Program-made: the position numbers and the translations under genes | Notes under the pieces: model-generated | The model's input: only the letters and a program-made list of their open reading frames with translations | Databases searched by the model: none | What the model was told of the DNA's origin: nothing | Part shown: positions 24,925 to 43,895 of the stretch, in pieces | How the letters are laid out: every line of letters begins with the position of its first letter | How positions within the stretch are numbered: the stretch's first letter is position 1 | DNA from: Methanobacteriota archaeon | Lineage (GTDB): Archaea; Halobacteriota; Bog-38; Methanoflorentales; Methanoflorentaceae | DNA: 64,000 nt | Reading direction: 5' to 3' | Assembly: GCA_963720465.1 (NCBI GenBank) | Contig: OY970393.1 | Coordinates: 2,048,001 to 2,112,000, forward strand

Positions 24925-26766
24925 ATGATTGAAGCTCTTGCGACATTAGGTCAGTATTCTATAGCTCAGCGGGAAGGCACTGACGAAAGCCATTTGCAAA
25001 CTTTGGTTGATGATCCTAAAACCTCAACAAGGTACAAGCACGTTTTATTTGTTACATTCGATGCGGCCAAAGACTACAGCTTTACCGGAGTCGAGTATGA
25101 GGAGTACTCAAAAGAGAAGATCTGCGAGTATCTCTACAAGAAAGGTGCTCCCAACGGGCCGGATGTCACGCCGACGGCAAGGGTTGCCGCAAAAATCGAA
25201 AAAACCTTTGATAATAAGATCGCGAAATGGTTTGAAAACGCATTGGATGACGATCTCGTGCGGCAGGATCAAACAAATTACGCATTCTTGCTCAAGCTCT
25301 CCAATGCTATAGAGCGTGAGCATGATCGCATTCTTGCTGAGCTCACAGCAAAGTTTGATGCTATCGAGAAAAAAGACCGCGTCATCATTTCGATCCTCAT
25401 CGAGAACGACCCGATCGGGAGGTACGTCGGGGATTTTCCGATATTCAGACAGATCGTTTCGAAAAAAGGCGTAGAGGCCTACTATAAGAGGTACGGCTTC
25501 GAGTCGGTAGCCTATGACCAAACGTGTTCCGTCTGCAAAACGGTCACTCCAGAGGTGTATGGATTTGCCAGCACTTTTGCATTCTACAACGTCGACAAGC
25601 CCGGATTCGTCAGCAGCGGGTTCGACCAATCAAAAGCTTGGAAAAATTACCCCGTCTGCGAGCGCTGCGCGTTGATTTTGGAAGAAGGTCGAAAGTTCCT
25701 CGAGCGCGATTTTGCCTTTCGGATGTACAATTTGAACTATTTCATCATTCCAAAGCCTTTGTTTGACCGCGATAGCGGCGAGGTGATCAAAAAATTCCTT
25801 TATTATAAGCGTGATTTTCGGTCACTGAGCCCCAAGAACAAGCGCATGGTGGACGCGCGAGAGGACGACATCCTGAACTATCTGTCCGAGCAGCATAACT
25901 TTTTTAACAACAACTTCCTGTTTTATGAAAAATCCAACGCCGCCTTTCGAATCCTCCTCTACATCGAAGACGTCCTCCCGTCTCACATCCGACGAATGTT
26001 TGAGGCCAAGGCGGTCGTTGACGAAAAATCTATGTTCAAAGCTGCAGGCAAGGACGGCGAGAGCTTGCTCTTCGACTTCCGGGCAGTGAACCACTTCTTC
26101 TGGGGTTCAGATAAGCGGAAGCACTTCTTAGAAGTTATTGATAGCATTTTTACCTCGAGGCAGGTTGACTATTCATTCTTGATTCGGTCGATAATCAACA
26201 AGATCCGCGACGACTACGCTCGAGGCAACTATACAAAATATTCAACGCTGCGCGGCATACAGCTCCTACTCTTTTTGCACGAGATGGATCTGCTGAAGCG
26301 ATATGAAGGTGATGGGCCAATGAAAGAAACGACAATTTTTGATGTGGACGATTCGAATCCCGTCGTCGACGCCGTGAATACATTGTTCGACGAATTTCCC
26401 GACTTCTTTGATACCAACGCAAAACGGGCGGTTTTCTTAGAAGGAGTCCTGACTGAGAAGCTGTTGCGTGTGCAGTACATGGAAAGAGGCGGAGCCACCC
26501 CTTTTAAGTCAAAGCTTAACTCTCTCAATCTGGATGAGCGTCTCCTTAAGAAACTGCTGCCGCAAATCCAAAACAAGTTTCAGGAATATGGAAAGGACTA
26601 CTATCGCACGCTGGAGAAGCTGCTAGCCGAGCATATGGTAAAAGCAGGCACAAACTGGAGGATGACTCCGGATGAGATAAGCTTCTACTTTGTCATGGGA
26701 ATGAACCTCTCAGACTACGTTAAAGGCAGCCCTGCTGCATCTGTGGAAGGTGATACAGATGGATGA
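24925..26766 (+). CDS. cas8b: Type I-B Cas8b (Csh1/TM1802-like)
   Basis: CSVC...FYNVDKPGF...NYPVCERC and FLEGVL...VQ...TPF..KL motifs. First gene of the cas operon. Confidence 0.92.
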   Translation: MIEALATLGQYSIAQREGTDESHLQTLVDDPKTSTRYKHVLFVTFDAAKDYSFTGVEYEEYSKEKICEYLYKKGAPNGPDVTPTARVAAKIEKTFDNKIAKWFENALDDDLVRQDQTNYAFLLKLSNAIEREHDRILAELTAKFDAIEKKDRVIISILIENDPIGRYVGDFPIFRQIVSKKGVEAYYKRYGFESVAYDQTCSVCKTVTPEVYGFASTFAFYNVDKPGFVSSGFDQSKAWKNYPVCERCALILEEGRKFLERDFAFRMYNLNYFIIPKPLFDRDSGEVIKKFLYYKRDFRSLSPKNKRMVDAREDDILNYLSEQHNFFNNNFLFYEKSNAAFRILLYIEDVLPSHIRRMFEAKAVVDEKSMFKAAGKDGESLLFDFRAVNHFFWGSDKRKHFLEVIDSIFTSRQVDYSFLIRSIINKIRDDYARGNYTKYSTLRGIQLLLFLHEMDLLKRYEGDGPMKETTIFDVDDSNPVVDAVNTLFDEFPDFFDTNAKRAVFLEGVLTEKLLRVQYMERGGATPFKSKLNSLNLDERLLKKLLPQIQNKFQEYGKDYYRTLEKLLAEHMVKAGTNWRMTPDEISFYFVMGMNLSDYVKGSPAASVEGDTDG

Positions 26767-27754
26767 TTACGTAAAGAACAGGTCTGAAATTATTTTTTTG
26801 TACGACGTCAAAGACGCAAACCCGAATGGCGATCCGCTTGACGAGAACCGTCCGCGGATCGACGAAGAGACTGGCATTAATCTGGTCACCGACGTCCGGC
26901 TTAAGCGGACGATCAGGGACTACTTGCACAACTTTAAGGACGAAGAAATATTCGTCAGGGAAATTGAGTATGGTGACGGTTACATCCAGGATGCAAAGCA
27001 GCGCGCTGAGGATTTCCTCCCCGCCGACACGAGCATGCCGGCAGGTCTTAATGAAAAGAAGAAGGTAATCGACGAGGGTGTGTTGCGCGCATGCATCGAC
27101 GTGCGGCTGTTTGGGGCCACGATACCGATCAGCTCGACAAAATCGACGAAAGGCGCTGACGAAGAAAAAAAGGGAGCGATCACCCACACGGGTCCAGTGC
27201 AGTTCAAAATCGGCCGGTCAATGCACAAAGTATACGTTAAGCATTTTAGGGGCACGGGGGCGTTTGCGTCCGGCAAAGGCGCGACACAAAAGACGTTCAG
27301 GGAAGAGGACTTTCTGCCCTATTCACTGATCAACTTCTATGGCATCATCAACGAGAACGTGGCGCCTGAGACGCGGCTCACCGAGCGCGATGTCAACGCG
27401 CTGGTGGACGCTATGTGGAACGGCACCAAGAACCTCATCTCACGGTCGAAAGCAGGGCAAGTCCCGCGGCTGCTCGTAAAAGTGAATTACCGGACCCGTA
27501 ACTACCACATCGGCGACCTCAACTCTGGCATCAAGCTTGTTTCAGAGCTGGACGATGAGGTAATACGTGACATCTCGGAAGTACAGCTTGACGTCGACGA
27601 GTTTATAGCCGCGTTGCTGCGTCACAAAGAGACCATTGAAAGTATACAGCATAAGGTCGATCCGAAAGTTAGGCTGCTGCACAATGGCGCTGAAATGACA
27701 TTCGAGGCGTGCCTGGATCAAGCCGGCGTTGCTCACTCTGCGCTCAGCTTCTGA
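26759..27754 (+). CDS. cas7: Type I-B Cas7 (Csh2)
   Basis: NPNGDPLDENRPR, VTDVRLKRTIRDY, DVRLFGAT, TGPVQF. Confidence 0.96.
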   Translation: MDDYVKNRSEIIFLYDVKDANPNGDPLDENRPRIDEETGINLVTDVRLKRTIRDYLHNFKDEEIFVREIEYGDGYIQDAKQRAEDFLPADTSMPAGLNEKKKVIDEGVLRACIDVRLFGATIPISSTKSTKGADEEKKGAITHTGPVQFKIGRSMHKVYVKHFRGTGAFASGKGATQKTFREEDFLPYSLINFYGIINENVAPETRLTERDVNALVDAMWNGTKNLISRSKAGQVPRLLVKVNYRTRNYHIGDLNSGIKLVSELDDEVIRDISEVQLDVDEFIAALLRHKETIESIQHKVDPKVRLLHNGAEMTFEACLDQAGVAHSALSF

Positions 27755-27762
27755 GGGACGGC

Positions 27763-28467
27763 ATGCAGCCCGTGATCGCATTTGATCTCTGGGGAGACTA
27801 CGCACATTTTCGCAAGTACTTCACAACAACGTCACCCCTCACCTTCTTACTACCCCCTCGAACGGTGTTAATGGGGCTCATAGGGGCTGTCTGCGGGCTC
27901 AAAAAAGAGGAGTACATTAAAACCTTCGCAGGCGACCAGGCACGATTAGCCGTCTCGATATGCCTTCCAGCGAGGAAGGTCAGGTTGGTAGAAAACTTCA
28001 TTGACACTAAAACTGCGCTCCTTATGGGCAAAATCAAGAACCGCACCCAGATAAGGCTTGAGCTCGTTAAAAACCCGCGGTATCGCGTTTACGTGAGCCT
28101 GAAAAACAAGGCACTGCACGATCTGTTGAAGGAGATGCTCGTCGCCCACAAATGTGTCTATACGCCGTATCTTGGAATCAGCGAACTCATCGCAAATTTT
28201 TCCTACGTCGGCGAGTACGCTGCGGAAGCGCGAGCGCCAGACAAACACGTGAATATCGTCACCGCGCTGAACGCTGACCTCATTCGGGACCTCACCATTG
28301 AGGATAATAAAGAGTACTTCTCAGAGGTGATGCCGTGCGACATGGCGGAAGACCGATCTGTCACGCGGTATTCTAAGATCGTGTACGAACGCAACGGGCA
28401 GGCAGTCAAAGCCCACGTTACCGAATGTCTGGAACTTGAAAAAGGCGAATTCATTGCGTTCATGTGA
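27763..28467 (+). CDS. cas5: Type I-B Cas5
   Basis: FDLWGDYAHFRK, PPRTVLMGLIGAVCG, YTPYLG. Confidence 0.95.
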   Translation: MQPVIAFDLWGDYAHFRKYFTTTSPLTFLLPPRTVLMGLIGAVCGLKKEEYIKTFAGDQARLAVSICLPARKVRLVENFIDTKTALLMGKIKNRTQIRLELVKNPRYRVYVSLKNKALHDLLKEMLVAHKCVYTPYLGISELIANFSYVGEYAAEARAPDKHVNIVTALNADLIRDLTIEDNKEYFSEVMPCDMAEDRSVTRYSKIVYERNGQAVKAHVTECLELEKGEFIAFM

Positions 28468-30847
28468 ACTCCTCTCCCATCCTAAAAAAACGCTGCTTGA
28501 ACACCTCGGCCAGGTCTCGCAAACGTGTCGCGAGACTGCCGCCTCAAAAGAAATCCGCTACAGCGATCTCGGGCTGACGCGTGACTTATTCACGCGCTTT
28601 ATGGAAACAGTCGGAGCGGCACACGACTTTGGCAAGTCGACACGCTATTTTCAAGAGTATCTGCGCGCCGCCGATGATCCGCGCTATACAAAACCCGCAG
28701 AAGCAAATCACGGCGTCATATCAGCGATATTCACCTACCACGCCGTAAAAACGGTCATCGGCGGCACGGATGGCGACGTCGCCGCTTATCTCCCGTACAT
28801 CGGCTTTCTCATCGTGAAGCGGCACCATGGGAATCTTAAGAACGCTAAGGATGAGATTCTGGACGCGGTTCATCCCGACAGCATCGATCGTGTAACAAAC
28901 CAAATCAACAGCATCGACCACGACAGGGTGCAAGGTCTCTACGACGCACTCGTTCTAGGCTTACGCGCCGATGTTTTTTTGCAGGAGCACCGCGCCGTCA
29001 TAAGCCAGCTCAACGAGGATAAGTTCGTTTTTGACGGATGGTTGGGTGCGTACCCGACTCCCGCCGTCTGCATTCTCATGTTGATGAGCTATTCTATACT
29101 AATCAGCGCCGACAAAGCAGAGGCATCGGGCACGAGCGTGCAGCGCTGCGAAGAGGCGCTCGCCGAAGACCTCGTCGAGGTTTATCGGCAGGCGAAGGGG
29201 TATGACGAGGCTGTAACCGACATTGACGGCATGAGAAACGCCATCTACGCGGCGGTATCGGCGTCGATCACTTCGGTGGACCTGGCGACGAAGATCATGT
29301 CCATCACAGCGCCAACCGGCACTGGTAAGACGCTCACTGCGCTCTCGGCAGCGCTGAAGCTCCGCCATATGGTGCACGCTGCGCACGGTTATTATCCGCG
29401 CATCATCTACTGTTTGCCGTTTCTGTCGATCATCGATCAAAACTTCGGCGTTCTTGAAGACGTGTTAACCTGCAATGACATTCCCATAACGAACGACGTG
29501 TTATTGAAACATCACCACCTAGCGGAGGCCTTCTACACGACGCGCGACAATGAATTTGAATCGGATCGGGCCCAGTTCTTGATCGAGGGCTGGGATTCTG
29601 AGATCATCGTCACCACTTTTGTACAGTTCTTTCACTCACTCTTTACGAACAAGAACCGCTCGCTCCGGAAGTTTCACAACATAGTTAACTCGATCATCAT
29701 CTTGGACGAGGTGCAGGCGATCCCTCATAAATATTGGAAGCTCCTGAACGATTTTCTTCGGACCCTCGGGCACATTTTCGCAACATATATCATCTTGGTA
29801 ACTGCAACCCAGCCGCTCATTTTTGAGGGCGACGTAGTCGAGTTGCTGACTGATCGATCTGCATATTTTGAAAAGCTCAATCGTGTGCATCTTTATCCGC
29901 ACGTCAGCGCTTCGTGTACTTTTGCCGAGTTTACCGACACAGTGCAAGCAGATATTGCGCAACACCCAACGAGCAGCTTCCTGATCGTGTTAAACACGAT
30001 CAACTGCGCTCGCGAGATGTATGCGAGCTTGCAGGAGTACGATGACGGTGACACCGTGTACTACTACCTAAGCACGCATGTCACACCGCACGAACGGTTC
30101 CAGCGAATACGCGACATTAAGCGCGGCATAAAACGTGCAGTTATCGTGAGCACCCAACTTGTCGAGGCCGGCGTGGACATCGATGTCGACGTCGTCTACC
30201 GGGACTTCGCGCCACTAGACTCCATCAACCAAGTGAGTGGCCGGTGCAACAGGAACGATCGGAGTGACACACGCGGTATTGTAAACTTATACGTCGTGAA
30301 TGACAAAAAAAAGGACGTTTACAGATACATTTATTCAGGATTGCCTGTAGACAAGACGCGCGAGGTTTTTAAAGCCTACGAAGACGGCGCAACAGCGCAA
30401 CGTGGAATACAGGAAACCTATTTTTTGGACCTCATAAACCGCTATTTCGCAAAGATCAAAGGGGGGCTTTCTGAAGACGAGTCGAAAGAGCTGCTTCAGT
30501 CCATCAAAAAGCTGGAGTTCGACGACGTATCCCACGAGTTTAGGCTGATCGACGAAAAAGGATATGAGAAGTTCGACCTCTTCGTTGAACTCAACGATCA
30601 TGCTGTTAAGACGTGGGAGCGCTACATGCGCGTTCGAAGCGTGGAAAACCCGTTTGAGCGGCGGAGGGCTTTCCTACAAATCAAGCGTGAGTTTTATGAC
30701 TACGTCATTTCCGTACCCGCTCGTGAGGTTTCGAACGACGTTAGGGATTTCGCGTACATAGGAAAGCTTCCTTATGAGCGCCTCGACACGTACTACGATA
30801 AGGCGACGGGCTTTAAACCTCGGTCACACGGAGTTATGATCCTGTGA
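28436..30847 (+). CDS. cas3: Cas3 HD nuclease-helicase
   Basis: LLEHL, HDFGK, HHG, SADK, APTGTGKT, LDEVQ, TAT, STQLVEAGVDID, QVSGRCNR. Confidence 0.97.
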   Translation: MKKANSLRSCELLSHPKKTLLEHLGQVSQTCRETAASKEIRYSDLGLTRDLFTRFMETVGAAHDFGKSTRYFQEYLRAADDPRYTKPAEANHGVISAIFTYHAVKTVIGGTDGDVAAYLPYIGFLIVKRHHGNLKNAKDEILDAVHPDSIDRVTNQINSIDHDRVQGLYDALVLGLRADVFLQEHRAVISQLNEDKFVFDGWLGAYPTPAVCILMLMSYSILISADKAEASGTSVQRCEEALAEDLVEVYRQAKGYDEAVTDIDGMRNAIYAAVSASITSVDLATKIMSITAPTGTGKTLTALSAALKLRHMVHAAHGYYPRIIYCLPFLSIIDQNFGVLEDVLTCNDIPITNDVLLKHHHLAEAFYTTRDNEFESDRAQFLIEGWDSEIIVTTFVQFFHSLFTNKNRSLRKFHNIVNSIIILDEVQAIPHKYWKLLNDFLRTLGHIFATYIILVTATQPLIFEGDVVELLTDRSAYFEKLNRVHLYPHVSASCTFAEFTDTVQADIAQHPTSSFLIVLNTINCAREMYASLQEYDDGDTVYYYLSTHVTPHERFQRIRDIKRGIKRAVIVSTQLVEAGVDIDVDVVYRDFAPLDSINQVSGRCNRNDRSDTRGIVNLYVVNDKKKDVYRYIYSGLPVDKTREVFKAYEDGATAQRGIQETYFLDLINRYFAKIKGGLSEDESKELLQSIKKLEFDDVSHEFRLIDEKGYEKFDLFVELNDHAVKTWERYMRVRSVENPFERRRAFLQIKREFYDYVISVPAREVSNDVRDFAYIGKLPYERLDTYYDKATGFKPRSHGVMIL

Positions 30848-31500
30848 AATTGAGAGTGTTTACGCTCCGAGTGCTTACCGACGCTCCGATTAACGCGACT
30901 GCGGCACAGTTACGGGGGTTTTTTGCCGCTAAATTCAACGATTTTCAGTTGTTGCACCATCACAACGCGGACAAGGTGATCTACGATTACCCCCGAGTGC
31001 AGTACAAAGTCGTTGATGGTCGGCATCTCGTCCTCGGCATCGATGAGGGAGCAGATGTGCTCGAGGAGATCTATGATCGATACGCGTCACTCCGTCTCGG
31101 GTCAACGACCTACAACGTCATCGGTCAGGAGTTTGGCGTCAAGGAGTGTGAGCTCTCTATCTCCGACGAATATTGTGCGTATACCTTTAAAACACCGTGG
31201 CTAGCGTTAAACCAGACTAACTACTTGAGGTTCTATGCGTGTAAGAACAGGACGGAACGATTCGAACTGTTGTCGCGAACGCTCATCGGTAACCTTCTCT
31301 CGATATCGAAATCCTTCGGGTATACCGTACCGCAGCGCATTGAAGCGGTCGTCCATGTCAACGCCGTAAAAACACGGCTCAAGAGCGTGAGTATTATGGC
31401 GTTCCGTGGAAGCTTCACGACGAACTTTGAGATTCCGGAGCTGTTAGGAGTCGGCAAGTCGGTATCGAGAGGTTATGGGGCGGTACAGAAATGCAACTAG
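30844..31500 (+). CDS. cas6: Cas6b crRNA endoribonuclease
   Basis: LRGFF, YPRVQYK, TPWLALN, C-terminal GVGKSVSRGYG loop. Confidence 0.9.
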   Translation: MKLRVFTLRVLTDAPINATAAQLRGFFAAKFNDFQLLHHHNADKVIYDYPRVQYKVVDGRHLVLGIDEGADVLEEIYDRYASLRLGSTTYNVIGQEFGVKECELSISDEYCAYTFKTPWLALNQTNYLRFYACKNRTERFELLSRTLIGNLLSISKSFGYTVPQRIEAVVHVNAVKTRLKSVSIMAFRGSFTTNFEIPELLGVGKSVSRGYGAVQKCN

Positions 31501-32471
31501 TCCTCAACACGCGTGGCGCCTTCTTGAAGAAGAAGGGTGATGGCTTTGTGATAAAAAATGGGGAGAAATCATACGAGGTAGCGGCACGCAAGGTAGAAAG
31601 CATTCTGATAACGACGTCCGCGACTATCACCACTGATGCCATCAAGTGTGCGATGGAGAACAACATAGACGTTGTGTTTTTAGACCACTTTGGCGACCCC
31701 TTCGGCAGGGTGTGGCACTGTAAACTGGGAAGCACAACCCTCATCAGACGTCGGCAGCTCGAAACGTCCATGAAACCGCGTGGGTTACGGATGGCGCGCG
31801 GCTGGGCCCTCACCAAGATTGAAAACCAAGCGCGGTATCTCAAAGAGCTCAAGAAGAACCACCCCCCGATACAGTCGGACTTACATAAGTATATAGAGCA
31901 GCTCGAGCAATTGAGCGAGAAGATGGCCTCCGTTGGAGGGACGATTGATAAAAATCGCGGCAAAATCATGGGCCTCGAGGGATCGGCGTCGCGACTGTAC
32001 TTTGGGGCATTGGCACGCGTACTGCCTGAAAAGTGGACGTTTCACGGAAGAAGTCGCGACCCGGCCGCAGACGGATTTAATTGCATGTTAAACTACGGAT
32101 ACGGGGTTCTCTACTCAATGGTTGAAAAAGGGATTATTGTCGCCGGACTAGATCCGTATATCGGGTTCATTCATGTTGATAACTACAACAAGAAGTCATT
32201 TGTCTTTGATTTGATAGAACTCTATAGGACGTATGTCGATCAGACGGTTGTCCCGCTATTTACACGAAAGATGGTGAAGGAGGACATGTTCGACACCGTT
32301 CCTGGGGGGTTTACGCTCAACGCCGACGGCAAAACGCTGCTCTTGCAGCTGTTAAACGATGCCTTTGAAAGGTCGATCAATCACCGGGGCAGGAACGTAA
32401 AAATACGGAACATCATTCAACTTGATTGCCACCGGATCGCAAATGATCTGCTTTTGCCTGGGGATGAGTAA
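31491..32471 (+). CDS. cas1: Cas1 integrase
   Basis: GLEGSASRLYF, NCMLNYGYGVLY, GLDPYIGFIH, FDLIELYR. Confidence 0.97.
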   Translation: MQLVLNTRGAFLKKKGDGFVIKNGEKSYEVAARKVESILITTSATITTDAIKCAMENNIDVVFLDHFGDPFGRVWHCKLGSTTLIRRRQLETSMKPRGLRMARGWALTKIENQARYLKELKKNHPPIQSDLHKYIEQLEQLSEKMASVGGTIDKNRGKIMGLEGSASRLYFGALARVLPEKWTFHGRSRDPAADGFNCMLNYGYGVLYSMVEKGIIVAGLDPYIGFIHVDNYNKKSFVFDLIELYRTYVDQTVVPLFTRKMVKEDMFDTVPGGFTLNADGKTLLLQLLNDAFERSINHRGRNVKIRNIIQLDCHRIANDLLLPGDE

Positions 32472-32764
32472 TGTCCATCGTGTGGGTCGTGTACGACATC
32501 GCTGAGAACAAAGTACGAACAAAGGTCAGCAATGCCTGTATAAGCACCGGCTTGTATCGTGTGCAAAAGAGCGTTTTTCTTGGAACCTTAAGCGCAAATG
32601 AACGCGATGAATTGGCGCTTAAATGCGAGGAACTGATCGATGCAGACGTTGATTCAGTCTACATCTTTCCCATGGATCAACAGTCTTTCAAGAGCGTGAA
32701 AATGCTTGGTCAGGCATTTAGCAAAGACCTTGTGAGTGATAAAGTGCGCGCTCTCTTCGTTTAA
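32471..32764 (+). CDS. cas2: Cas2
   Basis: VVYDI, RVQKSVFLG, DSVYIFP. Confidence 0.96.
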   Translation: MSIVWVVYDIAENKVRTKVSNACISTGLYRVQKSVFLGTLSANERDELALKCEELIDADVDSVYIFPMDQQSFKSVKMLGQAFSKDLVSDKVRALFV

Positions 32765-32774
32765 GGGTTTGTTC

Positions 32775-33377
32775 ATGTCATACTGTGATAATGAAGAGAG
32801 GGCAATTGTCACCATTACTGATGTACTAGAATACACCTTCTGCCCGCGCTTCATCTTCTATATGCGTTGTCTTAATATCCCCCAGCACGAGGAGAAACGG
32901 TTCAAGGTGCGAAAAGGCCGTGAGGTCCACAAAACACGCGCTATGACAAATAAGGGGTACTTGCGACACAAGATAAACGTCGTAAAAAAAGAGAGCGAAG
33001 TGTTGTTAACGTCACAGCGACATCGGATTAAGGGTAAGGTAGACGAAGTGCTGTTTTTAGCGGACGGAACCGCTGCACCGCTTGAATACAAATTTGCGGA
33101 GTTCAAGCGAACCGTGTGGTCCACGCATGCACTGCAACTGATACTTCAAGCTTTGTTAATCGAGGAGAACTACGGTACAACGGTCAAGAGTGGATTTGTG
33201 TGTTACACGCGGAGTAACGATGTTGTCAAAAGGGTTGATATAACTGATCGTGATTATGATCGCGCTTTGCTGGTTATTAGCGACATCCTTAAAATGATAG
33301 ATATAGGATATTATCCAGCTAACATGAGACCAAATAAGCGCTGTTCCGACTGTTGCTATAGAAACGTATGTGCTTAG
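32775..33377 (+). CDS. cas4: Cas4 (RecB-like nuclease, 4Fe-4S)
   Basis: FCPR, G.EVH, GKVDEV, EYK, C-terminal CSDCCYRNVC. The QxxxY position reads QLILQ. Confidence 0.93.
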   Translation: MSYCDNEERAIVTITDVLEYTFCPRFIFYMRCLNIPQHEEKRFKVRKGREVHKTRAMTNKGYLRHKINVVKKESEVLLTSQRHRIKGKVDEVLFLADGTAAPLEYKFAEFKRTVWSTHALQLILQALLIEENYGTTVKSGFVCYTRSNDVVKRVDITDRDYDRALLVISDILKMIDIGYYPANMRPNKRCSDCCYRNVCA

Positions 33378-33484
33378 TTTTCTGAAGTATTTAAAGACAC
33401 CAATAGAAATGGCATCAGAACGTTCAGTACCAAGAGGGGGTAGGATATCAACAATATTCGACAAAAGGAGTATTTTCGGCAGCT
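33378..33484 (+). promoter_or_regulatory. CRISPR leader
   Basis: Non-coding 107 bp between the cas4 stop and repeat 1, with a TATA-like TTTAAA near 33390. Confidence 0.75.
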
Positions 33485-36400
33485 CTTACAGAGCTACATC
33501 CAATAAAACAAGGATTGAAACTTGGGGGTCTAAAGATGGTACACGCGTGGTTAAGCCTTACAGAGCTACATCCAATAAAACAAGGATTGAAACCGACTCA
33601 GGAAGCGCAGTATAAAGAGGACCATATAGCCTTACAGAGCTACATCCAATAAAACAAGGATTGAAACGTCGAGAGCCTGATAAGTTTGCTATAGTCGTTT
33701 TGTTCTTACAGAGCTACATCCAATAAAACAAGGATTGAAACTAAATACGTAGGCGACGAAAAATCGCAGGGAGGCCACTTACAGAGCTACATCCAATAAA
33801 ACAAGGATTGAAACCCCAATAAGGACGTATCGCCGCGGTGTCAAAAGACGCGCTTACCGTTACATTGCCGTTCGGCCCAGTTACCACGGGAACGGGGTAG
33901 TCGAGAGGGTTTATTCCTATATTGTGGTGAATGACAAGCTTACAGAGCTACATCCAATAAAACAAGGATTGAAACTTCGAACTCATCTGGGTCTACACGC
34001 CGCATCCAACTTACAGAGCTACATCCAATAAAACAAGGATTGAAACACCAACAGTCCGATTGTGGCAAGTTTCACCCTCGGCGGTACCAAGACGGTTACG
34101 AGCGGAACCTTTACGCTAACGTTCGCAACCTTACAGAGCTACATCCAATAAAACAAGGATTGAAACCTGATATTGTGTGAGTCCCTAGGGACAACCCGCT
34201 ACTTACAGAGCTACATCCAATAAAACAAGGATTGAAACCTGGTGAGCCGAGCATCAATGAGTTTACAGCGATCTGCTTACAGAGCTACATCCAATAAAAC
34301 AAGGATTGAAACAAGGCGATCACACTCGTGAAATTGAATTTAGAAAACCTTACAGAGCTACATCCAATAAAACAAGGATTGAAACTAAGTTGCTTCGGTG
34401 AATGGTGTTTTTGTGATATACTTACAGAGCTACATCCAATAAAACAAGGATTGAAACCTAGCGCAGAAGGACGATGGGGACACTGACATGCTCTTACAGA
34501 GCTACATCCAATAAAACAAGGATTGAAACCTTTGTGCTGTTCGTTCCTACATTAAAAGTCCCCGACGCTTACAGAGCTACATCCAATAAAACAAGGATTG
34601 AAACCGACGTTGCGTTCCAGCTCCAGCGCGTCATCTCAGACTTACAGAGCTACATCCAATAAAACAAGGATTGAAACTTCCTCCCTTAAGTTTGGCACGT
34701 TCAATGCCTTCTTACAGAGCTACATCCAATAAAACAAGGATTGAAACTCGTTGAACGACACCGCCATGACGCCCGAGCCGAGGATGCTTACAGAGCTACA
34801 TCCAATAAAACAAGGATTGAAACCACATTCTATATCCCCCAACTCTCCTTTCCTAGTGCCTTACAGAGCTACATCCAATAAAACAAGGATTGAAACTCAT
34901 CAGGCTTAATATGTATAACGAACCGGATTTGGCTTACAGAGCTACATCCAATAAAACAAGGATTGAAACCCAAGAGTCAACCATCAGTCTACGACGTGCA
35001 CGTGAACTTACAGAGCTACATCCAATAAAACAAGGATTGAAACTCAATAACTGGGACCAGATCACCGGAGGAGGCCCTCTTACAGAGCTACATCCAATAA
35101 AACAAGGATTGAAACTTTGAGTGGGTTCAGCATTTCCTACGCCCAACCAAAACCTTACAGAGCTACATCCAATAAAACAAGGATTGAAACATCCCGACGA
35201 TACGACCGACCGTATCGTGAACCCCGCTTACAGAGCTACATCCAATAAAACAAGGATTGAAACACCGAGAGCGCACGATACGCGAGCTTAAAGAGACTTA
35301 CAGAGCTACATCCAATAAAACAAGGATTGAAACTCGGAGTAAGCAAGCGACGATCAGCGACTGCTAGTTGTCTTACAGAGCTACATCCAATAAAACAAGG
35401 ATTGAAACACGGATGCGGATTCGATGGGTATTGAGGTCATACTGCTTACAGAGCTACATCCAATAAAACAAGGATTGAAACTGCTCCAACACCAGACCAT
35501 TCACGCACAGCTGGAACTTACAGAGCTACATCCAATAAAACAAGGATTGAAACTACAAAGACGACCGAGAGCGATCCGAAGCAAGATCAACTTACAGAGC
35601 TACATCCAATAAAACAAGGATTGAAACTCGTTTCTGCCATCTTTAGTATCGCTTGACACGCGCTTCTTACAGAGCTACATCCAATAAAACAAGGATTGAA
35701 ACCTTGGATCATAGTTTTGGTTTTGTTTGTTTTATTTGACCTTACAGAGCTACATCCAATAAAACAAGGATTGAAACTCAAACGGGCAACACCACATCCC
35801 GCCAGAGATGGTATCTTACAGAGCTACATCCAATAAAACAAGGATTGAAACGCCACATTGGTTTAAAGTTCGCGCTGAATAACAAACTTACAGAGCTACA
35901 TCCAATAAAACAAGGATTGAAACGAGTTGGGATCTACAGCTTGACGCCAACAGTTCCAACTTACAGAGCTACATCCAATAAAACAAGGATTGAAACCGGG
36001 TGGGTGCCAGCGATACCCTCAGCACATCCAGCTTACAGAGCTACATCCAATAAAACAAGGATTGAAACGCCACATGATTCATGACTGTCGGAAGTGTCGG
36101 CTTTATCTTACAGAGCTACATCCAATAAAACAAGGATTGAAACTGACACCGCTCAGGCAGCCCGCGTCCCCGTCACTGGCTTACAGAGCTACATCCAATA
36201 AAACAAGGATTGAAACCAATTAAAAGCAGTTAAGACGTGCGCGCAGTGCTCCTTACAGAGCTACATCCAATAAAACAAGGATTGAAACTTGTAGTAACGG
36301 GCTCTTCTTCTGGGGAGATACCTCTTACAGAGCTACATCCAATAAAACAAGGATTGAAACATTCAGAACTAAAGAGGCATAGGATATGTCAAAAGACTTA

Positions 36401-37915
36401 CAGAGCTACATCCAATAAAACAAGGATTGAAACTGAACGATTCCGCTTCCTGCGCTCCGTTTTGCCATCTTACAGAGCTACATCCAATAAAACAAGGATT
36501 GAAACTTGAGGGTGGTACGGCTTTTGTAAACTTCAGCGCGACTTACAGAGCTACATCCAATAAAACAAGGATTGAAACCCAACCCTCGACATGAGGGAAC
36601 TAGACTGCCCTCTTACAGAGCTACATCCAATAAAACAAGGATTGAAACTGTTGCCCGTGGTTTCGGTGCCCGCGTTAAACACCTTACAGAGCTACATCCA
36701 ATAAAACAAGGATTGAAACTTAGTAAAATCGGTCGCTCCGCTCAAGGCGCAAGGCTTACAGAGCTACATCCAATAAAACAAGGATTGAAACTTTTTACAG
36801 TTGGAGAGAAGATAATACAGGTACTCGACCTTACAGAGCTACATCCAATAAAACAAGGATTGAAACCGGAACCTACGCCACGGCAGGCTGGGCAGGCTGC
36901 AACTTACAGAGCTACATCCAATAAAACAAGGATTGAAACTATTTTAGGGATAATCTATACACACGCACGGTTTAAACTTACAGAGCTACATCCAATAAAA
37001 CAAGGATTGAAACTCTATGGGCTTTCACGTATGGTGTCGCACTGCAAGACTTACAGAGCTACATCCAATAAAACAAGGATTGAAACCCAACACACCTGGC
37101 AAATCGGTCTGAATATAAACCAACTTACAGAGCTACATCCAATAAAACAAGGATTGAAACCTGTGACCTGGAAATAATAATTGGTGTTCAACTGCAGGCT
37201 TACAGAGCTACATCCAATAAAACAAGGATTGAAACAACATGAAGTTAGCGTATGATATCGGCGCTCTGATCTTACAGAGCTACATCCAATAAAACAAGGA
37301 TTGAAACGAAAATAACAGCGGCAACCTCGTGTTCGTGGAGTTCCTTACAGAGCTACATCCAATAAAACAAGGATTGAAACACTTTTCCAGGGTTTCAGGT
37401 CCCTGCTCGACGGCGACTTACAGAGCTACATCCAATAAAACAAGGATTGAAACAGTTGTTTGTGCCATAATCTGCTCCTTTTTTAACTTACAGAGCTACA
37501 TCCAATAAAACAAGGATTGAAACCTGCTATCGGTTTAGCGTGCTGGGTCGCTGAAGATCTTACAGAGCTACATCCAATAAAACAAGGATTGAAACTCTAG
37601 CAAAACCAAGAGGCAAAAATGAGTGATAAACTTACAGAGCTACATCCAATAAAACAAGGATTGAAACCCCATACCGCTTCCACCAGTGGCACTGTAGTGC
37701 AACAAGGCACCCACAGAGTTATATCCCACTCGCTTACAGAGCTACATCCAATAAAACAAGGATTGAAACACCACACCTCCCTTGCCGCCCTGCTTCGAAA
37801 GCACGGCTTACAGAGCTACATCCAATAAAACAAGGATTGAAACTTTATGAAGTGAACGATGCAAAGGCTTGGAATAGCCTTACAGAGCTACATCCAATAA
37901 AACAAGGATTGAAAC
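33485..37915 (+). CRISPR. CRISPR array: 59 identical 37-bp repeats (CTTACAGAGCTACATCCAATAAAACAAGGATTGAAAC), 58 spacers
   Basis: Counted by hand. Spacers are 33-39 bp except no. 5 (124 bp), no. 7 (83 bp) and no. 56 (65 bp). The repeat ends in the ATTGAAAC handle. Confidence 0.99.
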
Positions 37916-38120: not shown

Positions 38121-38723
38121 CTAAATCAAAATGAGTTTTCCGGCTAGTGTGAGCTCGTAGCCCTCAGAGGTCTCGTTGATAAGTCCCTGTTCCTTCAAGT
38201 CGCGCAGGTGCGTGTATGTCATCGTCCGACTGATATCCAGCTCGTCTTTGAGTACTTCAATGTCGCTGACGCCCTTGTTGATCATCTTAAGGAGATCGAG
38301 CTTCGTCTTATGAAGGCTCCACGAGATCTTGGGTATAGGAAGGACCTGATGGGCCTCCTCCGTCACGTAAAAGACTTCGCTGACCTTGTCGATGTTCTTG
38401 AACACCCCGAGCAACGCGCTGATTGATCCTGTCTTGCGCCCGCCGGTTATATTAACAAACACGCGGTTGCCCTTGTCGTGTTCGCTGTTGATAAGGTAGG
38501 TCATAAGGTCAACGAGGCCGAGGATGTCGTACCAGTTCTGCACCTCCTTCACTTCGATGTCGACGATGGCGCCGAAGGTGTTTTGCATGAGGCTCTCGAT
38601 CTTCTTGGCCTCCGAGGGCGGGTCCGTTTCGCGGATGAGAATGAGCTTTTTTACGTTGAACGTCTGCATACCGATGATAAGCGGTTCAGCTTCAAACCCG
38701 AGGGTGGCGATCATTACGTTCAT
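38121..38723 (-). CDS. csa3: Csa3-like CARF + winged-HTH transcriptional regulator
   Basis: IATLGF N-terminal strand, VNITGGRK CARF motif, C-terminal wHTH (ISRTMTYTHLRDLKEQGLI...YELTLAG). Confidence 0.82.
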   Translation of the reverse strand: MNVMIATLGFEAEPLIIGMQTFNVKKLILIRETDPPSEAKKIESLMQNTFGAIVDIEVKEVQNWYDILGLVDLMTYLINSEHDKGNRVFVNITGGRKTGSISALLGVFKNIDKVSEVFYVTEEAHQVLPIPKISWSLHKTKLDLLKMINKGVSDIEVLKDELDISRTMTYTHLRDLKEQGLINETSEGYELTLAGKLILI

Positions 38724-38971: not shown

Positions 38972-39490
38972 TCACGACAGGGTTGTTACTACCTGATTTA
39001 TTCCGTCGCTGTACGTTAAGGTCGTCGCAGTCGCGCTCTGCGGTACTTCGAACGCTATCTGTCCTGACACCTTCTCCCCGGGATTCGTATTTGACACTAC
39101 ACTAAGTGCATTGTTGCCGAGGAACGACGAAGAGGTTATTTCGTACACCGTTCCGCCTGACGTCGTCAGTTTGAAATCGTATGGGTTGCCGAGGTCCCAA
39201 TTTTTCTGGTTGAGATTTGTTACTGTGACGTCGAAGATGAGGAACTTGTTGCCCGGTTGTGGCGTGCTTACGACGTAGCCGCTCCCTATTTGGCTTGCCG
39301 TTTGCTGCGAATTGATCGTTACGGCGACGCCTGCGTTACCGCTGCCACCGCCTGACGAATTCTGCGTCGTGGTGTTCGTCGTGCAGCCAGCGGTTGCGAC
39401 TAAAACGAGCGAACCAATAAATAATAGCGGTAGCGCCTTTTTCAGTGGCATGTTAATATGGCGCTTCATCATTTTTGCTACTGGATTCAT
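38972..39490 (-). CDS. DUF4352-like lipoprotein
   Basis: LVATAGC lipobox, PQPGNKFLIFDVTVTN, PGEKVSGQIAFEVP. Confidence 0.82.
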   Translation of the reverse strand: MNPVAKMMKRHINMPLKKALPLLFIGSLVLVATAGCTTNTTTQNSSGGGSGNAGVAVTINSQQTASQIGSGYVVSTPQPGNKFLIFDVTVTNLNQKNWDLGNPYDFKLTTSGGTVYEITSSSFLGNNALSVVSNTNPGEKVSGQIAFEVPQSATATTLTYSDGINQVVTTLS

Positions 39491-39513
39491 TTTGAATTTC
39501 ACCTCCGAGCACA

Positions 39514-39870
39514 TCACGTGTTTTGTCCAGCGATCTGAGCGCCAGCAACGCGCTCCCTTTTTTGCATCAAGATGATGATGCCGCCAACGAGGAACAGTAT
39601 GAACGTGAGGACACCGAAAAGACTGATCGATATGACCACTCCAAGCGCCCCGACAATCATGAGAACTGCTCCGATGATTTTTCGCTGTTCGAGCACACCG
39701 CCAGCGATTCCGACTATCGAGAAGATGAAGGCTCCCGCAGCGTTCGTATAGAGCGATGACGCTCCCGTCGCGTTGAATGCCTGGCCAATTCCTCCGATGA
39801 GGACTACGAGTACGGCGGCGAGGATTCCAAAAATCCCTCCTATTATTCCGAGCCAAAATGCTTTGCCCAC
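39514..39870 (-). CDS. DUF4064-like four-TM membrane protein
   Basis: FWLGIIGGIFG...SIVGIAGG...GAVLMIVGA. GGAGG RBS and GTG start. Confidence 0.75.
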   Translation of the reverse strand: MGKAFWLGIIGGIFGILAAVLVVLIGGIGQAFNATGASSLYTNAAGAFIFSIVGIAGGVLEQRKIIGAVLMIVGALGVVISISLFGVLTFILFLVGGIIILMQKRERVAGAQIAGQNT

Positions 39871-40174
39871 GTGTTTGCCTCCTTTGGGTGCACCCGCGCA
39901 TCTGTCCTTACCTGATTCCTGCAGAATGTTGACGTCGCACGCGAGTGTAAATTTTGTATATTTACAATAAAGTCTTTTAATATATTAAACTAACTAAATT
40001 TAATAATCATAAAAAAGTATTAATCTATTGTAATTGAAACAGTTATAAATATTAAAACTTTAAAATAAGGCTATAAACATAACTCATTGTAACTCTCAAC
40101 GCTACAGGCGTATCTGCAAGATGAGCTAGGATAGCCTACCACAAAAATGCCATAGCTACTAATGGACTAATAAA

Positions 40175-40603: not shown

Positions 40604-42628
40604 TCATACTTCTGCTATCGTTGAAATCCCGTGCTCCTTTGATACTCGAAATATCTGGTCTGCAAAGCTCTCCAGTTCTCGCTCGTGCGAGACGATAATC
40701 ACTTGCGGGCACTCGAGCTCAGTCAGTATGTCCTGCACTTTGAGCAGCTGCTCTTTGCTGAAACCATCGGTGGGCTCGTCAAGGATGAGCAAATTCGATT
40801 CCATCGACGTTGCGACCTTGCGCACGATCATATTGAGGGCGAGTCTGTATGCGAGCGCGACGCTCGTTTTTTCGCCGCCACTGAGGTAGTTTACGCTTTG
40901 CTCGTAACCGTCCTGCTCTACGATTACAGTGAATTCCTCATCAATGCGGGCGCTCTTTGTGGGGTCCTCTACCAGCAATTCAAACCACTGCTGGAAGAAC
41001 TGATTAAACTCCTGCTGGAATGCTATCATGACGTGCCGCTCAATAGCCTCCAAGGCTTTTATAAAGTAGTCCTCAAGCCAGATCTTATTTTCAGTCAAAA
41101 GGCGTGCTTTTTTAACGTCACGTTCCTTCGCTTCGACTTCCCGTTCCAAGGAACCCAAAAGCTTTTTTTGCTGCTCGACGGTAGCGTCCAGTGACGAAAG
41201 CTCTTTTCCGATCTTCGACACGGCGTCGGCCGCTTCGCGTCTTTTGCCCTCAAGGTTTGCCAGATCCGCAGCGATCTGCTTCATTCTTAGTACCTCATCG
41301 CGCGCCTGCTCTAACGACTCTCCTAGCGTTAAGATTTCGCGCTTTGCCGTTCGAATTTTTTCCTCGTTGCGCTGGATTTTCTGCCGTACCATGTCCGCCG
41401 GTTCTTGCAGCAGCGCGAGCGTGTCTTGCGACCGGCCATACGCTTCGAGGGCACTAAGGAGCGCGCCAGCCTCAGTCAGATCTCTTTCCGTGTCGTCGAT
41501 TTGCTGCTGCACCGCGCCCTTTCTGGCATTCTCAGCCGCAATCTTTTTCGCACACTGCGTTGCGTCGGCCTTTCTGCCACACGTCGGGCAGATCCCGTCC
41601 GCGCGGATACGCTCGTAATTGTTAAGGGTGGACTCGATAAAGGCGGCGCTCTGCGCAAATTCCGCCTGCGATTGTTTCAGCACGTCGATCGACGCTTTGA
41701 ACTCGCGTTCGTTTCGCTCAGTCGGCCTTTTCATCTGTCGCAATCCCTCCATTTGTTGTTCTCGCCTTGCGAGCTCGTCTATGGCTTTGGCGAGCTCACG
41801 TTGGGCGGCCCGGATGTCGTCTTGAGCTCGTGCAATCTGTCGTTCGAGCTGCGGAAGTCTGCCCTCGGCTTGGGCAAGTACCTCTTTCTGGCTGCGCAAA
41901 TGGTCAAGTCGCTCGTTAATGGCATCCAGCTCGTCTTGCAGTTGACCTTCTTCGGTTCGCTTGTTTGCGATTGTTTGCTCCGATTGGCGTATTTCATTGT
42001 CTAGGGAGAGCAACTCCGCGCGCTTGGTTTCCACATCTGATGCGGAGGCCTCGAGAATCGCAGCCCTTGTGTTGCAAGCGGTAACTGCGAGTTGTGCGTT
42101 GTCTCGCGCGATCTTGTAGTCCTCGATCCGGAGCACCTTGTAGAGCGTTTGCAGCCGCTCTTTGGCATTGAGGGCGAGAATTTCTTTCATCTCCTCTTGA
42201 GGGGTGAAGATCGCGTAACGATAAATTAGGCTCTGAGCTCGAGGGTCCCGGGGCTCGTTGAACTCCAATATCTCCAGAATGCGCTCCTTCAGTTCGCTTG
42301 GACTGAAGCCCGTTACGCCGTCTGGTCCTTCAAGGTGCCCCTCACCTTGTTGCACGGTGCTGCCTTTTCGCACGAGCGTTCGGCGCACAACATACTCGTC
42401 TCCATCTACCTGGAAGGCAAGACTGACAGAGCCTTTCGACTCGTTTGTCTTGAGCAAAGAGCCACCTTTCTGTGATCCGAGGCCGAAGAGCGCGAATTCG
42501 ATGGCCATCAGAATGGTCGACTTTCCCGAACCGATGTCGCCTTCAAAGAGTGATATACCTGGGGGGAACGCTATCGTCGCCGTCTTGTAGCTCCTGACGT
42601 TTTCAAGTTTTAGGGAGCGCAGTATCAC
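40604..42628 (-). CDS. rad50: Rad50/SbcC-type SMC ATPase (short, 674 aa)
   Basis: GDIGSGKST Walker A, CPTCG zinc hook, LSGGEK signature, LILDEPT Walker B, IIVSH. Confidence 0.95.
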   Translation of the reverse strand: MILRSLKLENVRSYKTATIAFPPGISLFEGDIGSGKSTILMAIEFALFGLGSQKGGSLLKTNESKGSVSLAFQVDGDEYVVRRTLVRKGSTVQQGEGHLEGPDGVTGFSPSELKERILEILEFNEPRDPRAQSLIYRYAIFTPQEEMKEILALNAKERLQTLYKVLRIEDYKIARDNAQLAVTACNTRAAILEASASDVETKRAELLSLDNEIRQSEQTIANKRTEEGQLQDELDAINERLDHLRSQKEVLAQAEGRLPQLERQIARAQDDIRAAQRELAKAIDELARREQQMEGLRQMKRPTERNEREFKASIDVLKQSQAEFAQSAAFIESTLNNYERIRADGICPTCGRKADATQCAKKIAAENARKGAVQQQIDDTERDLTEAGALLSALEAYGRSQDTLALLQEPADMVRQKIQRNEEKIRTAKREILTLGESLEQARDEVLRMKQIAADLANLEGKRREAADAVSKIGKELSSLDATVEQQKKLLGSLEREVEAKERDVKKARLLTENKIWLEDYFIKALEAIERHVMIAFQQEFNQFFQQWFELLVEDPTKSARIDEEFTVIVEQDGYEQSVNYLSGGEKTSVALAYRLALNMIVRKVATSMESNLLILDEPTDGFSKEQLLKVQDILTELECPQVIIVSHERELESFADQIFRVSKEHGISTIAEV

Positions 42629-43884
42629 TTTTCAAAGGCTCCTTTCAGATGAAGAACGCCGAGCGCGTCTTCGAGCATGCGCACCTCATAGTCCTTCTTA
42701 TTCTCGGCACTTCGGTCCTCGCTAAGAACTCTCAACAGCTCAAGGGAAAGCTTGACGCCTGAATCACTCTTGAGGCCGGGAATAGCAGTGTGTACGGTCC
42801 CGATATTCTCGGTGAAGAGCCGCTCTTCGATAACCGTTACGTCCTCTCCGGCCACCTTTATAGCGGCGTAGTCAGCTGAGGTGAGGCCGCGGCGCCCGAG
42901 ATGCACGTCGACAGCGCCGCGCTCATAAAGCAGATTCTGCAGCTTTACAAAGTCTACGTCAGACGTTTTTCCACCGGATAATTCGCCCCGTATCTTCAAT
43001 ACGACGATCTTACCGTCAACGTCGAGGCTGCCAAATGATTCGGCGAGTGCGTCCTGGGCGCGCGACGAATTGAGCCCTGTTAGGTTATACTCTTTGTACG
43101 TGCTCTCGACCAAACCCGTCTCAACGAACTCCACGTCTGTTACCGTTTGATCGAAGTTTATGATGTAAAATCCCCGGCGCTCGCCCCTGGCCGTGAACTC
43201 AAAATCACGCCCATAACCAGCGAAAAGCGGCCCGGGGAACACAATCCTGTCGTATGCTGGGAGGCGGTGCTCTGAGTGCTGATGAACGTGTCCACCGGCG
43301 TAGTAGTCAAAACCCTTTGGGAAGAGCGAGATAGGGATTGAGTCCATCCTACTGAGGTACTCGGGCTTGAGCTCGTCAATGCCGGAGTGAAAGGCAAAGA
43401 TCTTGAACCCGTCGAGACGTTCGAGATCGTCTCGATCGAGCATGTCATAATACTCGCGCTCTAACCCCATCCGCCGCGCTGAGATACCAACGAGCTTCGC
43501 GCCCGTGCGCGCGTCTACGATGCACTCGAGTTTGAGCGTGCCGTCGATGACTTGTGGCTTTACAATCTTCGTTAGGAGGCCCGCGCTTTCGATCACGTCG
43601 ATAATGGACGTGCTCGTGGGCGTGTAATCATGACTTCCGTAAATAGCGTAAATCGGTATGCCGTGTTCGGTAACTTCTCGCATCTTTGCAACGGCTTGCC
43701 TTACTGTGTTGAGATCCGAGGGCACCCCGACGTGGAACAGATCCCCTGAGATGACAATGAAATCGACTGCGCGCGTAATGCAAATGTCCATGGCTCGCAC
43801 AAAGGCGCCGATCTCCAACTCCGCCATCTTCCCGTGTCGGTTTGCACCGAGATGGACGTCTGCCATATGGGCAAATTGATGCAT
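42625..43884 (-). CDS. mre11: Mre11 nuclease
   Basis: ADVHLG, SGDLFH, GSHD, AFH, YYAGGHVH. Confidence 0.95.
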   Translation of the reverse strand: MHQFAHMADVHLGANRHGKMAELEIGAFVRAMDICITRAVDFIVISGDLFHVGVPSDLNTVRQAVAKMREVTEHGIPIYAIYGSHDYTPTSTSIIDVIESAGLLTKIVKPQVIDGTLKLECIVDARTGAKLVGISARRMGLEREYYDMLDRDDLERLDGFKIFAFHSGIDELKPEYLSRMDSIPISLFPKGFDYYAGGHVHQHSEHRLPAYDRIVFPGPLFAGYGRDFEFTARGERRGFYIINFDQTVTDVEFVETGLVESTYKEYNLTGLNSSRAQDALAESFGSLDVDGKIVVLKIRGELSGGKTSDVDFVKLQNLLYERGAVDVHLGRRGLTSADYAAIKVAGEDVTVIEERLFTENIGTVHTAIPGLKSDSGVKLSLELLRVLSEDRSAENKKDYEVRMLEDALGVLHLKGAFEK

Positions 43885-43895
43885 CGTTGAAAGCC

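Follow-up and report, generated by a model that had tools for sequence, protein, structure and literature searches.

We describe here an over-length spacer in a CRISPR array of a Methanobacteriota archaeon (GenBank assembly GCA_963720465.1, contig OY970393.1). The window, by which we mean the whole stretch of DNA analysed, comprises 64,000 nucleotides (nt; positions 2,048,001 to 2,112,000 of the contig, forward strand). An exact repeat search found 59 copies of a 37-nt repeat, enclosing 58 spacers, at 33485-37915 on the + strand. All 59 repeats are mutually identical, the repeat ending in ATTGAAAC at its 3' side, and all 59 copies were assigned by Rfam to CRISPR-DR7 on the + strand. The final repeat before the trailer is also identical to the other 58; the terminal repeats of CRISPR arrays are usually degenerate. 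The leader extends from the stop codon of cas4 to repeat 1 (33378-33484, + strand). The element in question, spacer 7 (34047-34129, + strand; 83 nt), is the seventh spacer from the leader end, which by the established polarity of arrays is the end at which new spacers enter.

Directly upstream of the array lies a complete type I-B operon, cas8b-cas7-cas5b-cas3-cas6b-cas1-cas2-cas4, at 24925-33377, with all genes on the + strand and each called from NCBIfam or Pfam matches above the curated cut-offs. The effector genes are cas8b (TM1802/Csh1; 24925-26766; TIGR02556, E 8e-81), cas7 (Csh2; 26750-27754; TIGR02590, E 3.5e-89), cas5b (27709-28467; TIGR02592, E 3e-44), cas3 with its HD domain and helicase (28436-30847; TIGR01587 and TIGR01596) and cas6b (30844-31500; Pfam Cas6b_N and Cas6b_C). 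These are followed by the adaptation genes cas1 (31491-32471; TIGR00287, E 1.7e-87), cas2 (32471-32764; TIGR01573) and cas4 (32736-33377; TIGR00372, E 6e-41). The 16S gene of the host scored 1583 bits with an archaeal small-subunit model, and the class of the host is represented by 24 species genomes in the collection used, that is, by 23 besides the host itself.

Spacer 7 is bounded by repeat 7 (34010-34046) and repeat 8 (34130-34166), both on the + strand and identical to the consensus. Its frame +0 reads TNSPIVASFTLGGTKTVTSGTFTLTFA, which we take below to be a fragment of a viral gene related to the phrog_644 family. An earlier annotation made from the DNA letters (hereafter the original prediction) had described this 83-bp spacer with its stop-free + translation, and both boundaries and translation were reproduced. 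An open frame of spacer 7 alone proves nothing, since three of its six frames (+0, +2 and -0) are free of stops. Its length is a different matter: all but three of the 58 spacers (55) measure 33-39 nt, while spacers 5, 7 and 56 reach 124, 83 and 65 nt. Spacer 7 is therefore a clear outlier in length, which is the anomaly itself and no ground to doubt that it is a spacer. It stands two positions from the 124-nt spacer 5 (33815-33938, + strand), as had been noted before; the original prediction does not name the third long spacer, 56.

A viral gene family matching spacer 7

The original prediction had likened the spacer 7 peptide to the C-terminal motif of a widespread structural protein of tailed viruses. 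The motif codons (L-G-G-T-K-T-V-T-S-G-T-F-T-L-T-F, residues 11-26) occupy 34077-34124 on the + strand. When the proposed motif, [F/L]GG-x-KT-x-T-x-GTFT-x-x-F, was scanned in IMG/VR as degenerate DNA, at least 120 loci matched it, whereas the same pattern reversed, used as a control, had no match in IMG/VR. A single open reading frame (ORF) family takes all 120 matches listed, and in every one of these 11-19 residues separate the motif from the stop or the contig end; 74 of the listed matches are complete ORFs, mostly of 142-153 amino acids (aa). The family consensus runs ...AVCVLDFGGDKTATSGTFTIQFPAATAS-AILRIA. Seven of the eight IMG/VR members tested, and all four phage genes tested, belong to phrog_644, a family of 'unknown function', and no Pfam family was found for the motif-family members tested. 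A 24-member profile of the family, searched against 1.84 billion sequences, retrieved 4,799 cluster representatives with E<=0.001, of which 2,128 also pass E<=1e-10. The proposed motif exists, all of its listed matches fall in one family, and that family is widespread. The exact motif occurs in only 9 of the best 150 family representatives, and it is therefore one variant of a conserved block.

To place spacer 7 in this family, we searched family profiles against 86,663 stop-to-stop peptides from all six frames of the whole 2.31-Mb genome. With the 24-member profile, the spacer 7 ORF ranked first at 25.8 bits (E 5e-5), with the runner-up at 10.2 bits. Since this profile had been built from motif-selected sequences, a second one was built from 120 representatives without the exact motif; the spacer 7 ORF again came first (19.2 bits, E 0.0029; runner-up 12.0). 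The alignment is unbroken over residues 3-27 of the peptide; on the 24-member profile it is ungapped and takes in positions 108-135 of 144. The second-best family match in the host genome, near genome position 1,454,326, was judged to be due to chance. Among single proteins, the closest agree with the spacer 7 peptide at 18 of 26 residues, its leading TNS included. In a tblastn search of the peptide against 50,697 phage genomes, the single match was weak (E=3) and fell on the homologous motif of gene 63 of Gordonia phage Guey18, which is itself a phrog_644 member (E 2.7e-35) and whose match to the family alignment has a probability of 98.4%. When all 58 spacers were compared with the 120 listed IMG/VR loci, only spacer 7 matched, with 22 of 23 nt at the motif of one locus (L019).

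The spacer 7 peptide thus aligns to the conserved C-terminal block of phrog_644, whose named members include Guey18 gene 63, Pelagibacter phage HTVC023P gp57, Roseobacter phage CRP-603 gp59 and Microcystis phage MJing1 WKV16964. This likeness has its bounds. Only 27 residues of the source protein are seen, with a best identity of 18/26, and the named members are 'hypothetical' proteins from bacterial phages, whereas the host of spacer 7 is an archaeon. All 15 cultured-phage records with a family member label the phrog_644 protein as hypothetical.

What the family may do is suggested by its gene neighbours and predicted fold. In three of the four annotated phages examined, coat or tail genes flank the family gene: it follows the tape measure and minor tail genes and precedes lysin A in Guey18, lies between the coat protein and the tail fibre in CRP-603, and precedes a 'tail repeat like protein' in MJing1. 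The neighbourhood in HTVC023P was uninformative. An AlphaFold (AF2) model of one family member had a mean confidence (predicted local distance difference test, pLDDT) of 89.9. Compared with 48,161 solved chains, its best seven matches are all tail, baseplate, fibre or neck parts (Z 10.4-4.6), namely the Klebsiella phage KP1 baseplate (Z 10.4), the Bxb1 tail tip (Z 8.4), the GP4 fibre adaptor (Z 8.2), the tail of Haloferax tailed virus 1 (Z 7.6), the Sf14 neck (Z 7.4), the phi812 baseplate (Z 5.2) and the 7-7-1 tail fibre (Z 4.6). Unrelated enzymes come next in the ranking, at Z<=4.2. In BFVD, seven fold matches reached E<=0.001, among them a 'structural protein' of phage 7-7-1 (E 2e-6); a Foldseek search of the model against the PDB gave no match at that threshold. 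The modelled fold and the gene order, as distinct from proteomics, support phrog_644 as a tail- or baseplate-like beta-sandwich and a putative virion protein, and on the same basis the earlier description of a tailed-virus structural protein finds support.

Source of the spacer DNA

Short-read contigs from three runs (X1, X2 and X3) of one freshwater-sediment study were placed on 33778-34275. These runs may be the same data as those behind the genome assembly, and the contigs are therefore not independent evidence. Three contigs match the array without a single differing letter: X1 record 5 over 34021-34118, X2 record 15 over 34017-34129 and X3 record 21 over 34069-34157. Contigs of the host lead from repeat 7 into the spacer (X1 record 5) and from the spacer into repeat 8 (X3 record 21), and also cover the array trailer (records 1, 10 and 18). 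The short-read contigs thus support the repeat-spacer-repeat arrangement at spacer 7. In X3, a fraction of 0.40 of five sampled words was present, and this run shows the host junction between spacer 7 and repeat 8, not the virus.

Two contigs, one of them the X2 record 15 just named, link the spacer to DNA that is not the host's. X1 record 7 (1,246 nt, depth 41.9) covers 34089-34129 and then continues in letters other than the repeat. X2 record 15 (551 nt, depth 8.9) holds 30 nt of repeat 7 and the entire spacer, and then the same run-on letters as X1 record 7. The host genome holds no copy of a 20-mer taken from the run-on DNA, even with up to 2 mismatches allowed, and neither IMG/VR nor the JGI contigs contain this 20-mer. 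Relative to the host's trailer contig, the depth of the run-on contig is ~1.9 in X1 and ~0.3 in X2, which therefore fits a separate replicon. The 30 visible run-on letters, read by hand, stay open in frame +0, while frame -0 meets a TGA two codons beyond the spacer. In sum, contigs from one study link 41-83 nt of spacer-identical sequence to non-host DNA, and no contig carries both foreign flanks.

A variant of the spacer was also seen. X1 record 6 (71 nt) covers 34049-34118 with four differences, one of which is C>T at 34088, and has a depth of 48.6 against 25.2 for the host's own copy. The table of differences for this contig lists only those away from the contig ends. Since the other three are unlisted, and since the right-hand 30 nt must equal record 7, we infer that these three lie near the 5' end of the spacer, proximal to the protospacer adjacent motif (PAM). 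The variant may be an escape variant of the virus beside an immune host.

Taken together, we favour the reading that spacer 7 was acquired as a single over-length piece of a tail-module gene, the source being an uncultured tailed virus; to this reading we give a probability of roughly 0.75. The original prediction of one contiguous viral protospacer is supported by the unbroken alignment of residues 3-27, the lack of a repeat remnant (see below) and the contigs that join the spacer to non-host DNA. Several results weigh against this reading. The exact 83-mer occurs neither in IMG/VR nor in JGI metagenome contigs, and no full-length protospacer was recovered. A blastn search of spacer 7 against the 50,697 phages gave only chance matches (E=9). 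Among 40 relatives the repeats alone were matched and spacer 7 was not, and no spacer of the whole array matched the 23 other genomes of the class. The spacer 7 peptide alone had no match in PHROGs (hmmscan) or Pfam at E<=10. No contig of the foreign molecule reached left of 34048, that is, into its PAM-side flank, and the PAM is therefore unread. In X2 record 15, host repeat, spacer and foreign DNA stand on a single contig, and for this reason it is probably an assembly chimera (k=31) that passes through the stretch common to both molecules; otherwise it is a real molecule for which we have no explanation. Finally, the hosts in all 15 cultured-phage records with a family member are bacterial or unknown. 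As the known cultured members are bacterial phages, that the source virus infects this archaeon is itself something that we infer.

Some further searches were without result. Spacer 7 was not found in its own genome outside the array, and none of the array spacers has a self-target in the genome. No protospacer of any other spacer, by which a PAM might be defined, was found in the 120 listed IMG/VR loci, the host genome or the 23 other class genomes. A search of these 23 genomes with the spacer 7 peptide gave one match (E=0.017) in non-coding DNA of one genome (G019), which was judged to be due to chance.

It bears on the source, too, that neither the host nor any of the 23 other class genomes yielded a provirus with the family gene. 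This and the bacterial or unknown hosts of all cultured records speak for an alternative in which spacer 7 is contiguous but does not come from a virus of this archaeon: it would have been taken from a bacterial phage, a provirus or other mobile DNA that entered the cell or was taken up, or else the run-on DNA would belong to another strain. Yet CRISPR spacers normally derive from DNA replicating in the cell, one of the fold matches (Z 7.6) is a tail component of an archaeal virus, Haloferax tailed virus 1, and the host's own samples are rich in the element; we thus consider such a source unlikely.

A second alternative is that the match to phrog_644 is a coincidence of a Thr/Gly-rich peptide and that spacer 7 comes from unrelated DNA. 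The peptide is indeed short (27 aa) and compositionally simple, and it matched neither PHROGs nor Pfam. A coincidence is very improbable, however, given a reversed pattern with 0 matches against at least 120 for the motif, a runner-up that is 7-15 bits lower genome-wide, and an alignment located where the motif belongs in the profile.

Long spacers in array calls are usually the product of two neighbouring spacers fused after loss of the repeat between them, and spacer 56 of the same array has a 12/14 match to the repeat. For spacer 7, however, such a fusion is extremely improbable. Two normal spacers add up to <=78 nt without a repeat and to >=103 nt with one, and a length of 83 nt therefore fits no two-spacer fusion. 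Spacer 7 holds no repeat remnant (its local-alignment score is 6, where shuffles average 6.5), and both the motif codons and the one ungapped profile alignment cross its midpoint at 34088. X1 record 6 also spans 34049-34118 in one piece, with its four differences and at a depth unlike the host's. That the 83-nt unit is an artefact of assembly or consensus and does not occur in the cell is barely credible, for although CRISPR arrays are hard to assemble and the three runs are possibly the same data as the genome, records 5, 15 and 21 from these runs cover both repeat-spacer junctions with 0 differences and a 50-nt overlap.

Acquisition, predicted guide function and other long spacers

Under the favoured reading of a single over-length acquisition, Cas1-Cas2-Cas4 would have integrated one piece of ~83 bp, ~47 bp above the usual 33-39 bp, in a single event, and the long prespacer may have resulted from failed length measuring or end trimming. 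The piece would stem from near the 3' end of a phrog_644-like gene of ~145 aa in the tail or structural module of a Caudoviricetes virus, and this virus, or a mobile element with that gene, would co-occur with the host in the freshwater-sediment samples. The array is presumably transcribed from left to right. Cas6b would then cut inside the repeats and release a CRISPR RNA (crRNA) that carries ATTGAAAC as its 8-nt handle, together with a guide of 83 nt; the processed crRNA of spacer 7 would begin with AUUGAAAC, followed by the spacer. Cascade with such a guide would need ~14 Cas7 subunits as against the usual ~6. The RNA structure predicted for the 120-nt crRNA unit was not unusual (z -0.04).

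Rare over-length acquisition is of a kind already described, and spacer 7 would be a further natural case. Gong et al. 2019 (PMC6582329) report that new spacers of the type I-B system of Haloarcula hispanica are mainly 32-39 bp long, with ~0.15% of 37,638 much shorter or longer, and that engineered spacers of 60 and 72 bp gave mature crRNA, strong immunity to virus and priming. Like the array described here, that system is an archaeal type I-B in which spacers normally measure 32-39 bp and a small fraction are much longer (PMC6582329). It differs in that the ~0.15% pools short and long events of the laboratory, whereas here 3 of 58 retained spacers are long (PMC6582329); 3/58 is far above ~0.15%, retained spacers and acquisition events being different measures. 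Spacers 7 and 5 (83 and 124 nt) also exceed 72 bp, the longest size tested in H. hispanica (PMC6582329). For the type I-E Cascade of E. coli, Luo et al. 2016 (PMC5009729) describe a complex that lengthens with extended spacers and still recruits Cas3. A type I backbone that lengthens with its guide is the mechanism we assume for an 83-nt guide as well (PMC5009729), with the difference that the E. coli case is engineered, of another subtype and, in the test considered here, extended by 12 nt, whereas spacer 7 is natural and extended by ~47 nt (PMC5009729). A working long crRNA is plausible, given that engineered spacers of 60 and 72 bp function in a different archaeal type I-B system, and spacer 7 is probably still usable as a guide.

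The other two long spacers were compared with this case. Spacer 5 holds no repeat remnant and has two open frames of 41 aa each (+1 and -0), for which no homologue was found in Pfam, PHROGs or a search of 5.8 billion proteins. A Phage_F match of one spacer 5 frame at E 0.23, the sole Pfam or PHROGs row for the open frames of the three long spacers, was set down to chance. Spacers 5, 8 and 9 had no contig cover in the three runs, a gap that proves nothing. Spacer 56 (37668-37732, + strand; 65 nt) lies near the trailer, and its positions 45-59 match the 5' part of the repeat at 12 of 14 letters, a score that 1.4% of shuffles reach. For this reason spacer 56 may have another origin; it may be a deletion product and not an over-length acquisition. 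The original prediction had proposed a recent period of untrimmed acquisition from the closeness of spacers 5 and 7. This is not supported, as spacer 56 near the trailer is also long and no homologue of spacer 5 was found.

Three arrays of relatives hold 51 spacers of 34-43 nt, and over-length spacers are therefore not general in the lineage as sampled. One of these arrays, in a relative from the same phylum (L143; G033:C1:1286000-1293500, minus strand), has in addition, at its end, a gap of 118 nt between repeats, where either a decayed repeat or a further over-length spacer may lie. At two minus-strand loci of a relative from the host's family (L141, G022:C1:1116000-1125000; L142, G022:C1:1516000-1524000), repeats flank inserts of 268, ~270 and ~424 nt. 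These inserts hold small ORFs, one of them Cys-rich and of ~67 aa, and are thus genes between repeats, not spacers.

A bolder proposal would be that the adaptation module has a loose length ruler, habitually integrating prespacers that are 2-3.5 times too long, and that the long guides are kept as functional and harder to escape by point mutation. We regard this as unlikely. It would build on the 3 long spacers among 58 retained, set against ~0.15% of events in H. hispanica. In this reading the X1 variant, with four changes in 70 nt of which three are apparently PAM-proximal, could show in nature how a virus evades an extended Cascade, or how such a Cascade tolerates changes in its target.

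As a single acquisition, spacer 7 would be a natural over-length spacer, a contiguous piece of a viral gene and not an artefact of array calling, kept in an intact type I-B array and longer than the laboratory-tested maximum of 72 bp. It would also link a sparsely sampled archaeal class (24 species genomes) to a tailed virus with a tail-module gene of the phrog_644 type. It further points to samples where the host, the spacer and a virus variant with mismatches are present side by side, a setting in which escape from a long guide could be studied directly.

Surroundings of the array

Outside the window, two solitary repeat-like units lie 3.6 kb apart (G000:C1:819800-823700), each with six mismatches to the array repeat. 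A leader-like stretch precedes each unit; the two stretches are similar to one another (alignment z 18), and one of them weakly resembles the leader of the main array (z 3.2). The units look like empty units of a leader plus one repeat. No similarity was seen between the long spacers and either the leader or these two leader-repeat units.

Just downstream of the array lies a gene for a csa3-like regulator with CARF and HTH domains (38121-38723, - strand; TIGR01884, E 4.7e-19). It adjoins an ORF of 309 aa with a DUF4352 domain and without an NCBIfam name (38972-39901, - strand). An archaea-typical rad50-mre11-herA set follows at 40604-45497 on the - strand, 2.7 kb downstream of the array.

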